This document shows, in pieces, positions 17,001 through 21,737 of a DNA stretch of 64,000 nt; the stretch's first letter is position 1, and each line of letters begins with the position of its first letter. Source of the DNA: Podospora anserina. Its lineage: Eukaryota. The translations under genes and the position numbers were made by a program. The notes below the pieces were generated by a model. The model had not been told where the DNA came from, did not search any database, and worked only from the letters and a program-made list of their open reading frames with translations. The DNA lies in assembly GCA_017654855.1 (NCBI GenBank), contig CM030332.1, forward strand, positions 3,410,001 to 3,474,000, given 5' to 3'.

Positions 17001-18541
17001 ATGAGCACAAACACTGCCCGCAAGGCCGGCGAACAGCCAAAGCGTCGTGCCTGCGACGAATGCCGTATGCCGCCCTTGATGATCTTGCTTTGAGGATAGT
17101 CTTCTGACTCTCTACAGGAGGCCGAAAGCTCGCCTGTTCCAAAGAAATCGATGGATGCGCTCGATGCAAGCGCGAAGGCATCAAATGCGTCTACTCGCCT
17201 CAGAAGCCCATGGGAAGGCCGAGAAAACGAGCACATGTTAAGATTGACGCCACTGAAAACACTGAAACCAATGCTCAGAAAGACAAGCCAAATGTCGTTA
17301 CCGCAGAGACTGCACCAGCCCTCCCAGCCCTCCCGGCGAACATCACCCCTATTCCACCTTTCAACCCCGACGACTTTGCCCTTCCAGAGTTCGACCCAAC
17401 CCTCGCCATGGATCTCGACTTCTCCTTCCTCGACATGAGCAACACCGACCTCAACTTCATAGACATCATCGACCCCTCCACTCAATTCCCACCCAACCAG
17501 TACCTCCCCACCGACCCCCTCCCACAACACCTCAACCCATTACCCCCCATCGAGCCCATCAACAAAACCCCCGTATCCGAACCCCCAGGACAGTTCTTCG
17601 CCTTCGGCACCGACCTCGGACAGATCGACTTCAATTCGTCCGTCTGCCAACAACCCCCCACCAGCCAAGCACCCGAGATCTCCCAAGAAGACGTCGCCGA
17701 AATCTTCTCCATCCCCAACAACATCCCCACCATCCCCGACGATTGTTCCGTCCCCAGTCTTTCCCCGGGAGGTAGCTCTTCCTCATCCTCCTCCTCCCCC
17801 AGCGCCGACCCTCATTCCAACGACCCCCCAACATGCAGCTGCCTAGCCTCGCTGTACCTAGCAATGGAATCAGTAAAAGTCCTCCCCAAATCCATCTCCC
17901 GTGCCATGCGCATCACCCGAGCGGCCTCCCGAACAGCCCACGACTCCATCCTCTGCAAAGTCTGCAGCGACGTCCCCTTGTTCAACCCGGATAACCCGGG
18001 CACTTTGGCCAAGCCGCCGATGGTGTCGCTTCAGTCGCTCATGATGCTCGGGGCTCTGCTTCCATCCCTCTCGAACGCGTACATGAGGATATTGACAATG
18101 GTTGATCAGGAGGCTGCTGCTGCTGACAGGGAAAGGCGGAAGATTGTGTTTACGCTTTCCGAGTATGGGGGTTTGTGGGGGACGTTGGCCGAGCAGGAGC
18201 CTTACCAGTGCGGGGCGGCGGAGAAGCTGGAGGGGAGGGTGATGGAGGCGGGGTTGTGGAGGTTGACGGTTAGGGCACTGCTCAAGATTGATGTTTATGG
18301 GGTGCAGGATGTGCAGTGTAGGGATGTGAGGATGTTGGGGTTGAAGGATATTATTGGGATGATGGAGGAGAGGTCGAGGAGGAGGCATAGGTTGATGGAT
18401 GAGTTGGTCGAACGGGGGGTGGTGGGGAGGATGAGGGGGTATGTGAAGTTGGGGGATGGGGAGGTGGGGGGGGAGCAGCCGACTTGTTTGAGGATTATTG
18501 ATATTGCTAAGAGGAGTATGGAGGAGTTGATTATTCCTTAG
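17001..18541 (+). CDS. Zn(II)2Cys6 transcription factor
   Basis: Splicing intron 17065-17117 gives RRACDECRGRKLACSKEIDGCARCKREGIKCVYS followed by PMGRPRKR; C-terminal CSC...CxxC region. Confidence 0.93.
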
Positions 18542-19264
18542 GTTGGGGGATTGATATGGGAAGGAGGGGAGGCAAGAGGTTAGAGGGCCGCAATGTCGAC
18601 CGACTATCTCGAAGATGGCTTCAACATGGAGGCAACAGGCTAGGGGATTACTTGGGTGGATCAAGGGGGGCAAAACGAGCCATGAGATGGCAAATACGGT
18701 GGACTACAGGACAACGCTGTGTTTACAGTTGGATTCAACATGTTGATATCACAAAGACTGTTTAGGATGGAGGACTGAGATGCACGGGAGACATCAAAGC
18801 AGGGGGCTCCCTGCTGGGCAGGTGCTGTGGTGCTCAACGAACTTGAAGGCGTTCCGGACAGGATGTTTGCTTTTTACCCATTGTGAGTTACTGTATAATA
18901 ATATACCGTAGTCTTTGTTTATCAGATACCAACAGCCACAACTCCATACACACCAGCCAACCACCACTCACTCCTGTCCTTGACCATTCGCCATCCGGCC
19001 CTCCACTCTTCCACCCCACCCCATCCATCCCAGCCCCCACCCACCCTTCATAACCCCATTTTCCTTGTTCTCTCTTTCGCACCTCGTCAAGGCAGAACAC
19101 GGCTCGTCGCAGTCGTTAAGCGCGTCCTTGGCTGACTTAGAGTGTCTGCGGGGGAGAACCTCGCAGGCTTGGACACAGTTTCGAACAAAAGATTTAATCA
19201 TCTCATCCGCTGCAGATTACGGTTGGAGAAGGGTCTGCTAACGAGTTTCTGATGATTATGAACA

Positions 19265-20200
19265 TTATAAAAATCCCAAGACGGCGTTTTTTCGTGGCTG
19301 GCCTTGCAGATAGGTTCTGTGGGCAGCGAGCTTTTTTGTGGGTTTTGCTGCTGGTTGGGGGTCAGCTTCACGCAACCTCGAACCTCGTCAGTTCGAGTCC
19401 AGCTTCCAGCAAAGAGAGGATAGGAAAGGTCTCGAAGCAAAATCTCAGTTTGCCTTTTTCCAACTGAAGAAACTGTGAACCGCTCAATGACCTACAACGT
19501 TATGACCCACAGTTTCTTCAAGAAGTGAGCAAGATATGTATATATATATATATATATGGCTTGAGCAATCAAACCGAAGGCGTGGCATGTTCGACATGTC
19601 AAACCGAAGGGTCACGAAACAAGAAAAAAAAGGGTAAAAACTACCAATACCGGCTTTTTTCGTAACCAGCTTTCTACATTGTAGATAGCTGGTGAGCTTT
19701 TTATATTTAGAACAACGGTGTTCTATTCTTTTCCCACTCTCGATGGCGCTTGTGGCATACCCTCATCAAACCAGTCCGATTCCAAGTACCTTATGCCTCC
19801 CTTCTTTTTTAACAGCCTCTCCTCACCCCAAACTAACCCCAAAGCAGCCACCCATCACAACCCCCCCCCCTCATACCCCAACCAATTCCTAACCCAAAGT
19901 ACTGGTGATTTGTCCGCAGCGCAACGGTCAAACACGAGCGCACTTTGGGGGGGTCACGGACGTATATTAAGCTGCCAAAAGCTTAGGATTCGCGTCTCTG
20001 TTGCAGCACAATTCTTCTTCTTCACCTTGTGAACCGTTTCATGACCCACAAGAATTAAGCGGAGAATATGCGGCAACATGAGGACTATGACACACCAGAG
20101 TGTCAAAAAACAGAGTGTTTAAAAACCGACGTAAACAGGTTTTTCGTAACCAGCTACCTGGCCAGTAGTTGGTGAGCTTTTTATGTGTCGCTCTCTTTTG
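19265..20200 (+). ncRNA. Candidate structured non-coding RNA element(s): three copies of TAAAAA-N13-16-TTTTTCGTR-[stem-loop]-GAGCTTTTT
   Basis: Copies at 19287-19337, 19655-19702 and 20140-20182. Flanks are conserved while stems differ in sequence but still pair. G-U pairs favour the + strand. Identity unknown. Confidence 0.45.
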
Positions 20201-20622
20201 CATTATTCAGGTGAATAGAAACAATTGAATTTCAACCACGTCAACTAACAACCCAAAATTGACTCCAACATACGAAAACACATGTTTGCTGTTCCTAAAA
20301 CCATCAACAATTTTCTACATGTCAACAACCCTCAAATGAGAAGAGAAACCGGATAATAGATAAAAATGATGGATGAAGCTACGCCGGTAACATGATTGCC
20401 TGGCCATTTGCATCTGCCCTAGCTTTGACCAACTTGACGCCCTCCTCTCGGTTCCCTTTGCTTGTCCTTCCCCCCGTCCTTAACACCATCCTTGGGCCAG
20501 TTCTTCTCTTCCTCTTTTTGGTATCCTGTGTGCTTTGTGTTCTCATAATTTGTTGTTTTGTATGCGAGAGATGCAATGAATCACGCAGTGTAATTTCAAT
20601 GACAAGACATTTCGCAATGTAT

Positions 20623-21737
20623 CTAGTACACCTTCTTCTTCTCGTCGATGCTGAACTGGCCGGGGCCGCTGTTGACCAGCAGGAGGAGACCACCGACAAT
20701 GGAGAGAATCTGGAAGAAATCGTACTTGGCGAAGTCCTTGTGGGGGTGGTGCTCGTGGAGCTGTTCAATGGGGTTAGCGACTGGCATTTTTTGCTGACTC
20801 GGAGAAAAACTCACAGTCCAGAAGTTGTTCACAATCACGTTGAACACGCTGAGAATGACGACCAACAAGGTGGCGCTGAACTTGGCCTTGAATCCAACAA
20901 CAACCATCACGCAGGCGGCCAGGCCCAACAAGCTGACAATGATGCGGAGAACGGACCACTCGCCAGAGAAAACGAAGCCGATGAAGAGGAAGATGAGCAG
21001 AACACGACCGGCGAGCTGGAAGTACATCTTGCGGTCCTTCTCCTCGAGCTGGGGAAGTCCGGCAAAGGCCTTGGTCTTGCGCACCCACGAGTCGGAGAGA
21101 ACCATCAGGAGACCACCCATGACCGACAGGTTACGCAGGAAGAAGTTGAGGTCAAAGATGAGACCGTACCCGAGAGCCTGCGTGACAACTACACCCATAA
21201 GACCGCAGACGGCGTACTCGGAATGCCGGCGGATGATGACGAGGGTTGAGCAGATGGCCATGACGATAACGTTGGCGATCAGGAAGAGGTGGGTGAGACC
21301 GGAGGGAACTAAAAGACAAGGGTGTCAGTCCTATTGTCGCGAAGCGCATTGCACAAGAGTTCCCCTAGAGCCACGTACTGTGACGGTAGTCATGGAGGTA
21401 AAGAAGCTGGTCGTTCCATTGTGTTATTATTCTGAGAGCGTCTTCGATAAAGGTCACGACGATGAGGAAGCGGCCAATGGCGGGAAGGAAGCTATTCAGG
21501 ACCGAGGTTAGCGATCAAGCCCAGACCCGACGGGAGAAGCCCTCCATATCCGGAGTAGCAATTGACTGCGACATACGGCTTGATAGGCTCGCTGAGGGTA
21601 TCCAAAAGATCCTCAATCTTGCTGGTTTGCTGGCGGATGGTGTCCAGAGGACTCTGTTCCACCCTCTGATCGATGTCTCCGCCAAAGGGCGCCGGCGCGC
21701 CGATGCCGTAGCTGCCCTGTGCTCGCAATTGCGCCAT
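20623..21737 (-). CDS. ERV29: SURF4/Erv29 ER cargo receptor
   Basis: FLPAIGRFLIVVTFIEDA, FFLRNLSVMGGLL, KYDFFQILSIVGGLLLL, C-terminal dilysine DEKKKVY. Introns 21492-21576, 21309-21378, 20761-20814. Confidence 0.97.

Follow-up and report, generated by a model that had tools for sequence, protein, structure and literature searches.

We analyzed a stretch of 64,000 nucleotides (nt) of Podospora anserina (assembly GCA_017654855.1, contig CM030332.1, positions 3,410,001 to 3,474,000), which is called the window here. In a 2.1-kb gap between two convergent genes, a Zn2Cys6-type gene on the + strand and a SURF4 gene on the - strand, the window contains three copies of a short element, all on the + strand and all with the layout TAAAAA-N13/14-T5/6-CGT-hairpin-GAGC-T5/6. 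The hairpin of this layout is called hairpin 2 in the following; a second one upstream of it, hairpin 1, is proposed below. The three copies appear to belong to an undescribed family of ~70-90-nt structured RNA elements of filamentous fungi, and we consider it probable that this is a real conserved structured RNA motif. A preliminary description of this DNA had placed the copies between two convergent genes; both open reading frames (ORFs) were found, and spliced RNA contigs confirmed both genes. The Zn_clus match of the first gene lies under the Pfam cut-off because an intron splits the domain. The features of the locus are:

Up to 18541, + strand: Zn2Cys6-type ORF, which ends at 18541 (Zn_clus, E 0.0033).
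19268-19337, + strand: copy 1, with T at 19268, A5 at 19269-19273, a 13-nt linker, U6 at 19287-19292, CGT at 19293-19295 followed by G, hairpin 2 at 19296-19327, GAGC at 19328-19331 and U6 at 19332-19337.
19635-19702, + strand: copy 2, with T at 19635, A5 at 19636-19640, a 14-nt linker, U6 at 19655-19660, CGU-A, hairpin 2 at 19664-19693, GAGC at 19694-19697 and U5 at 19698-19702.
20120-20182, + strand: copy 3, with T at 20120, A5 at 20121-20125, a 14-nt linker, U5 at 20140-20144, CGU-A, hairpin 2 at 20148-20173, GAGC at 20174-20177 and U5 at 20178-20182.
20623, - strand: end of the SURF4 ORF (E 1.7e-66).

Re-reading of the sequence and a pattern search against shuffled sequences confirmed the three copies as first described. 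The pattern TTTTTCGT-N20-40-GAGCTTTTT matches three times in the window (19288-19336, 19656-19702 and 20140-20182, all on the + strand) and gave no match over 100 dinucleotide-preserving shuffles. Using a covariance model built from the three window copies only (R1), a search of the whole window with the filters off returned exactly these copies with E-values of 1e-13 to 1e-15; the next-best match (E 0.64) was the reverse strand of the hairpin of copy 2. A second model (R2), built from seven sequences, detected no further copies in the window or in the outside loci L055, L038, L028 and L017 introduced below. Hairpin 2 is 26-32 nt long in the window copies, and copies 2 and 3 align over 85 nt. 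Copy 1 has an extra U4 run 6 nt downstream of its second U tract, and an A8 run (19622-19629) lies ahead of copy 2. Fold z-scores of the + strand were -1.6 for copy 1, -3.3 for copy 2 and -2.0 for copy 3. Within the three copies RNAalifold found compensatory double changes in 5 of 11 pairs, so that the covariation of the stem noted in the preliminary description was borne out.

The element also occurs in other fungi. Metagenome contigs were scanned with the pattern TAAAAA-N12-18-TTTTTCGT-N20-40-GAGCTTTTT (23 fixed nt), and 69 matching stretches were obtained, mostly A+T-rich chance matches without a hairpin. Six of the 69 contain a hairpin closed right at CGT-N and GAGC with an energy of -10 kcal/mol or lower. 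They correspond to four distinct sequences: L055 (-31.2 kcal/mol), L038 (-21.5 kcal/mol), L010 (-16.3 kcal/mol; the same sequence as L014 and L028) and L017 (-10.6 kcal/mol). The model R1, which had been built from the window copies only, scored these loci at 28.2-35.9 bits and all other pattern matches at 23.8 bits or less. Control scans were made with a slightly looser pattern. Among the 120 matches listed from prokaryote genomes one had a spanning hairpin and none had hairpin 1 in addition, and inspection of the folds of 43 matches in viral contigs revealed no hairpin spanning the interval. L017 is the weakest member of the family; its energy is like that of the single control match, yet it shares the ACC/GGU closure and the flanks. 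The match L037 was left out of the family; its hairpin, closed by ACC/GGT, is weak, its surroundings look bacterial, and with R2 it scored 25.5, as chance matches do.

The outside contigs are fungal or at least eukaryotic. The contig of L038 carries OST3/OST6 and the end of a GH6 cellulase gene, and its element is located a few hundred nt behind the co-directional OST3 gene. The element of L010 adjoins a Ser/Gly-rich ORF and faces a convergent gene at a distance of ~290 nt from the stop of that gene. All outside loci are intergenic with one copy each, and there is no synteny among them or with the window. Since four distinct fungal contigs share the architecture, the element is conserved beyond the P. 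anserina locus. At 7700-7941 of L010 and 10650-10823 of L028 (- strand), the element is immediately preceded by a microsatellite with a 9-nt unit, (CAACCACGA)n; all three of its frames are open, and its length differs among the otherwise identical L010, L014 and L028.

The pairing of hairpin 2 was evaluated in an alignment of the seven sequences that was fitted to the covariance model. Standard pairs occupy 95.6% of 68 cells, and 7 of 11 pairs are changed on both sides. None of 500 shuffles reached any of five pairing measures, and sliding the partner strand by 1-3 columns reduced pairing to 34-50%. A count from the anchors, independent of any alignment, gave standard pairs in 27 of 28 cells for the four basal positions, each of which shows up to four pair types (G-C, A-U, C-G and U.G at pair 4). 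The stem, which varies between 11 and 15 base pairs (bp), is unrelated in sequence from locus to locus and still kept in its pairing. The first nucleotide after CGU is unpaired. U tracts of 5-6 nt flank hairpin 2 in all seven members and are set apart from the stem by CGU-R on the 5' side and GAGC on the 3' side, between which RNAalifold predicts a G-C pair (G from CGU, C from GAGC) and a U.G pair. The earlier view of a structured, covarying stem-loop with conserved unpaired flanks was upheld by these results.

The + strand of the element is likely the RNA strand, as judged from the predicted folds. Hairpin 2 is more stable on this strand in four of seven members (copy 1, copy 3, L055 and L038), for example with -14.5 versus -10.1 kcal/mol in copy 1 and with -21.5 versus -8.0 kcal/mol in L038, where the stem contains five G.U pairs. 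Over all minimum free energy (MFE) folds there are 11 G.U pairs on the + strand and three on the - strand.

Four features are independent of the search pattern: the hairpins, the A that follows CGT, the exact A5 length and a CG upstream of the A tract. The A tract is exactly 5 nt long in all seven members and lies 13-17 nt upstream of the first U tract, and A follows CGT in six of seven (G in copy 1). A CG is located 1-4 nt before UAAAAA in all four outside loci and can pair with the CG of CGUA. Further U runs follow 3-14 nt downstream of the element in six of seven members.

The preliminary description had regarded TAAAAA together with imperfect outer pairing as the surroundings of the stem. 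TAAAAA is indeed present in each copy, but outer pairing is convincing only in copy 3, and in none of the seven members does TAAAAA pair better with the second U tract than with the first. When the pairings were forced, A5 with the first U tract was better than A5 with the second in five of seven and about equal (within 0.5 kcal/mol) in the remaining two. We therefore revised the anatomy: A5 pairs best with the first U tract to form hairpin 1, and CGUA, hairpin 2, GAGC and the second U tract follow. This predicted hairpin has moderate support. It is the MFE structure or within 0.6 kcal/mol of it in L038, L055 and L010, and its energies in L038 (-12.3 kcal/mol) and L055 (-7.9 kcal/mol) exceed those of all 63 pattern matches outside the family (best -6.0 kcal/mol). 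G-C pairs at the linker ends extend it by three pairs in L055, four in L010, five with a bulge in L038 and two in copy 3, where hairpin 1 is perfect (AAAAACC with GGUUUUU). At least two additional linker-end pairs were found in 11% of 183 chance matches.

The element was compared with known RNA classes. Rfam 15 gave no match in the window at the gathering score; at E <=10 only four chance-level matches (E 0.76 or worse) were obtained in 18600-20700, and L010, L038, L017 and L055 yielded only two irrelevant weak ones. The candidate for a new element thus gave no relevant Rfam match in window, gap or outside loci. In the literature searched, which did not cover supplements and the primary list of fungal elements for nuclear expression (ENEs), no description of such a motif was found, and the accessible part of the 2017 fungal motif survey of Li and Breaker contains none.

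The first of three earlier hypotheses was an ENE-like function. According to PMC7583470, the U-rich loop of an ENE has to be closed by a lower stem, and an A-rich partner is required on the 3' side. Among the seven members the flanks are not complementary, apart from the partial outer pairing in copy 3, and the only A tract matched to the U tracts is the A5 upstream of the first one. The ENE hypothesis was right about two U tracts flanking a stem and about the presence of an A5 tract; it did not hold for the lower stem, for the CGU-R and GAGC spacers and for the A5, which pairs locally upstream. The element does not agree with a canonical ENE, since it lacks the closing lower stem and has its A tract upstream.

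A second hypothesis, a guide for ribosomal RNA, was not supported. No ACA or ANANNA box is located at 14-16 nt, and the 3' flanks of the seven copies share none; no CUGA follows the U tract in any of the seven, and UGAUGA is found only 12 nt before copy 1. The two proposed 18S sites would not fall into a bipartite H/ACA pocket, and the window contains no rRNA. Rfam gave no small nucleolar RNA (snoRNA) at the gathering score, with one weak match elsewhere in the window (18735, E 1.1). The 10-nt complementarity of GAGCUUUUUA to a conserved 18S stretch, claimed in the preliminary description, would, if correct, concern one arm only. Conserved single-stranded flanks around a covarying stem are a likeness to H/ACA and C/D guides; unlike these, the element has no H, ACA, C or D boxes at conserved positions and no bipartite pocket for a single target.

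Transfer RNAs were not detected: ARAGORN reported no gene in the window and six loci, and lowered thresholds gave only artefacts with giant introns. The 100 nt upstream of the element are unstructured (z-scores +1.3, +0.6, -0.7 and -0.3), and tRNA-like parts upstream of the L038 and L055 elements were rejected as not structured. On the element strand, B-box-like GTTCGAnnCC words with one mismatch to GGTTCGANNCC are located at 19390-19400 of the window, at 1181-1191 of L055 and at 1127-1137 of L038. Such one-mismatch words occur in the window, L055, L038 and L017, at an estimated expectation of ~1.3 in the sequence scanned. The word ends 9-12 nt before UAAAAA in L055 and L038 and lies 53 nt after copy 1 in the window. 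An A-box-like word is present at 1060 of L038. No tRNA-like fold was found.

Telomerase RNA was considered on account of the gap size and of CTAACCC words and was rejected, as there is no template of at least 1.3 repeats and the element is multi-copy (cf. PMC4993307). The exact word TAACCCTAA was not found in the search; words with one mismatch start at 19834 and 19890, at chance frequency (9 found versus 6.8 expected). Two CTAACCC(C/A)AAAG words (19831-19843 and 19887-19898) stand 56 nt apart in C-rich tracts and resemble a telomere template at chance frequency. K-turn, hammerhead and Rnt1 AGNN-loop, compared by eye with their consensus sequences, did not fit.

Contigs from four sequencing runs show GT..AG and CT..AC joints at both genes, and because of these splice joints the runs were taken as RNA. 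These contigs give neither the strand nor true RNA ends. The 3' part of the Zn2Cys6 transcript is represented in three of four runs by contigs from 18566-18631 to 18946-18960, and in the fourth run (X15) one contig extends to 19492. The interval 18566-18960 is probably the 3' untranslated region (3'UTR) of this gene, and the copies are located ~310 to 1200 nt behind the main + strand transcript end. Contigs of low depth (2-4) cover 19109-19650, including copy 1 in all four runs. In three runs their cover ends at 19608, 19631 and 19650, and in the remaining run at 19451; all of these ends precede copy 2 or fall at its beginning. Between 19650 and 20055 none of the runs has contig cover, which is a blank and not evidence of silence. 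From the other side, the ends of the SURF4 messenger RNA contigs lie around copy 3, at 20235, 20206, 20137 and 20055; this copy is antisense to the SURF4 mRNA end and covered only by SURF4 contigs. This gives a weak hint, from contigs without strand or true ends, that transcripts from both sides end at the cluster. A third hypothesis, a repeated element of a long 3'UTR or long non-coding RNA (lncRNA), is a possible reading. Copy 1 is covered in all runs, the hairpin of copy 2 is uncovered, and copy 3 lies only under contigs of the opposite-strand SURF4 gene.

Some further observations were made in the RNA data. Contig depth at 18566-18960 is ~10 times that of the coding part in three of four runs (160-183 versus 15-72), which could be due to a 3' bias or to a separate stable RNA. 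All four runs break between ~18456 and 18566, at GGAGG-type repeats, and in one run adapter sequence abuts 18588. All four differ from the window by A>G at 17581 and G>A at 21145; the comparison covers RNA runs only, and either a strain difference or RNA editing would account for both.

The gap contains a second repeated hairpin at 19465-19520, in which TGAAGAAACTGTG and CACAGTTTCTTCA form a 13-bp stem without mismatches around AACCG..ATGACC..ATGACC. Upstream of copy 3, at 20026-20052, there is a shorter relative, CTTGTG-AACCGTTTCATGACC-CACAAG, and both have the word TGTGAACCG..ATGACCCACA in common. The hairpin at 19465-19520 was not found in the outside loci. At 19536-19562, ~75-95 nt ahead of copy 2, there is a (TA)n microsatellite at which the RNA contigs of one run are interrupted.

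From these data we tentatively propose that the element is a 3'-end module in the termination zone behind a co-directional transcription unit, with a U tail docked on an A5:U5 helix. That it serves 3'-end formation or protection of any kind is somewhat more credible than this explanation as a whole, and still short of probable. The reading as a 3'-end module is drawn from the U runs downstream of six of seven members, from the position at co-directional or convergent gene ends and from the RNA cover that stops near copy 2. The anatomy would be (CG)-U-A5, a short linker, U5-6, CGU-R, hairpin 2, GAGC and U5-6, often with another U run. A5, the first U tract and 2-4 G-C pairs at the linker ends would form hairpin 1, with hairpin 2 directly next to it, and GAGC-U5 would remain as a 3' tail. 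The transcript would end in or just after the second U tract. This tract would leave hairpin 2 at its base, next to that of hairpin 1, would run parallel to A5 and could form U.A-U triples in the major groove of the A5:U5 helix. Such a docked tail would shield a non-polyadenylated, U-ended RNA from 3' exonucleases, and tandem copies would act as successive fail-safe 3' ends between convergent genes. CGU-R and GAGC may form G-C and U.G pairs or a turn resembling the bulged-G motif that steers the tail; in the outside loci, the CG may extend hairpin 1 instead. We infer that the RNA ends at the U tract, that a triple helix is formed, which is doubtful, and that the element stabilises or terminates the transcript. 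It is rather unlikely that the element is a self-contained triple helix of new topology that caps U-ended RNAs and at the same time serves a eukaryotic nuclear polymerase as a 3'-end or termination cassette of the intrinsic type.

The proposed structure would amount to a permuted ENE+A, with the A tract upstream and the 3' instead of the 5' U tract as third strand. The ENE and ENE+A systems (KSHV PAN, MALAT1/MEN-beta, plant and fungal transposon ENEs) are similar to the element in having U5-6 tracts on both sides of a stem-loop and an A tract of equal length, in a polarity that would permit U.A-U major-groove triples and in a position near RNA 3' ends. In contrast to these, the A tract of the element is genomically encoded upstream and is not a tail or a downstream tract; it forms a hairpin with the 5' U tract, so that the 3' U tract would be the Hoogsteen strand. 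Moreover, the element has no clamping lower stem, carries CGU-R and GAGC between U tracts and stem and has no Rfam match. It shares with bacterial bidirectional intrinsic terminators and RNA polymerase III (Pol III) oligo(T) terminators the order A tract, stem and T tract in hairpin 1, a hairpin followed by a T run in hairpin 2 and the clustering of T runs in an intergenic termination zone. Unlike these, it belongs to a eukaryotic nuclear locus, has a conserved 4-nt spacer between hairpin 2 and the T run and a low G-C content in hairpin 1; no upstream Pol III gene was recognised, and the internal T run of the element would end Pol III transcription early. The junction of the element may resemble the bulged-G (loop E or sarcin-ricin) motif: immediately below a helix, its 5' strand reads GUA and its 3' strand GA, as in the sequence signature of that motif; copy 1 differs from it by G in place of A, and in the outside loci the CG of CGUA can pair with the upstream CG.

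Several points weigh against the proposed module. Copy 1 is read through in all four runs and is therefore not an efficient stop; the hairpin of copy 2 has no RNA cover, which is again a blank and not silence, and the strandless contigs provide no mapped RNA end at the U tracts. A scan for bacterial-type terminators flagged only copy 3 among the copies and found two in all, versus a shuffle mean of 2.1. Hairpin 1 is weak in copies 1 and 2, with one and no direct additional pairs, respectively; the folds in which it was forced lie 3.9 and 6.2 kcal/mol above the MFE. For hairpin 2, the - strand gives the more stable fold in L010 and L017, and neither strand is favoured in copy 2. A triple helix leaves the conserved CGU-R and GAGC unexplained, and an isosteric C+.G-C replacement, which the search pattern could not have found, was not seen. 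TAAAAA, TTTTTCGT and GAGCTTTTT were part of the search pattern, so that their conservation in the four outside loci is given by construction, and the fitting of the alignment to the model bears on the covariation values.

Among the alternatives, a termination cassette without a triple helix is unlikely, though not negligibly so. Hairpins of the nascent RNA and T tracts would slow or release the polymerase at a barrier of three copies; hairpin 1, with its A tract, stem and T tract, would read alike on both strands like a bidirectional intrinsic terminator, and the GUA[A/G] words of the element presumably could serve as Nrd1/Seb1-type sites. Such a barrier would agree with left transcripts that stop at 19608-19650 and right ones at 20055-20235, with the interval from 19650 to 20055 uncovered in all runs, with the location of the copies between convergent genes and the convergent gene faced by the L010 element, and with two to three T runs per element and a terminator-like call for copy 3. 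It is difficult to reconcile with the RNA cover that passes copy 1 and with a terminator-like count no higher than in shuffles, and to our knowledge hairpin-dependent termination has not been established for eukaryotic RNA polymerase II. Since no other intergenic region of the 64-kb window has the element, it is not a general terminator. The same T runs after the element would be the terminators of stand-alone small non-coding RNA genes of ~75-200 nt with the two-hairpin part as a protein-binding handle, an improbable reading. Dispersal at non-syntenic intergenic sites, a cluster that resembles snoRNA or tRNA clusters and conserved unpaired nucleotides beside a variable helix are in line with it. 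The internal T5-6, however, would terminate Pol III ahead of hairpin 2; neither a conserved promoter or box nor a tRNA or an Rfam family was found, the upstream 100 nt are unstructured, and the four runs contain no abundant discrete RNA, although such libraries lose small RNAs.

The chances of a canonical ENE in a long 3'UTR or lncRNA, with the U tracts clamping a poly(A) tail or a distant A tract, are slim. The U5-6 tracts on both sides of the stem would suit it, as would the G-C and U.G pairs of RNAalifold, which give a G-C closed top of the U-rich loop, and fungal transposon ENEs are reported in PMC7583470. The closing lower stem is missing, however, outer pairing is confined to copy 3, pairing of A5 with the second U tract was worse in five of seven when forced, and neither transposon genes nearby nor a relevant Rfam match (E <=10) in the 2.1-kb gap were found. 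It is very unlikely that the element is a relic of a mobile element, such as the tail of a short interspersed nuclear element or a miniature inverted-repeat transposable element, or a product of local duplications kept by descent and not by function. It is short and dispersed, three copies are in tandem, copies 2 and 3 share the 85-nt alignment, and B-box-like words lie near some copies; yet the stems differ completely between loci and still pair, which would not result from descent alone. Terminal repeats, target duplications and transposon ORFs were not seen, and each outside contig has one copy. Still less is to be said for an element that acts as DNA, either as a protein-binding site or as a nucleosome-excluding A/T-tract cassette: A5 and T5 tracts, palindromic arms and intergenic position would fit, but the G.U pairs (11 on + versus three on -) would be A.C mismatches in the cruciform of the other strand, and the arm sequences are not conserved. 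We give almost no credence to a guide RNA for 18S rRNA modification, for which the claimed complementarity speaks and the missing boxes and snoRNA matches do not; the 5' flank is presumably not complementary to the rRNA beside the claimed 18S site.

If real, the element would be a new class of structured RNA of filamentous fungi, in which junctions conserved in sequence are combined with freely covarying helices. It is absent from Rfam and, within the coverage given above, from the literature searched, and after a genome-wide search it would clearly qualify as a candidate for a new RNA family. If the U tail does dock, triple-helix protection of 3' ends would extend from poly(A) and A-rich ends to U-ended RNAs, and fungal gene constructs could be equipped with a stabiliser or terminator that is compact and portable. 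Even as a mere terminator cassette the element would be of a rare kind, since it would terminate convergent fungal genes by a defined sequence.

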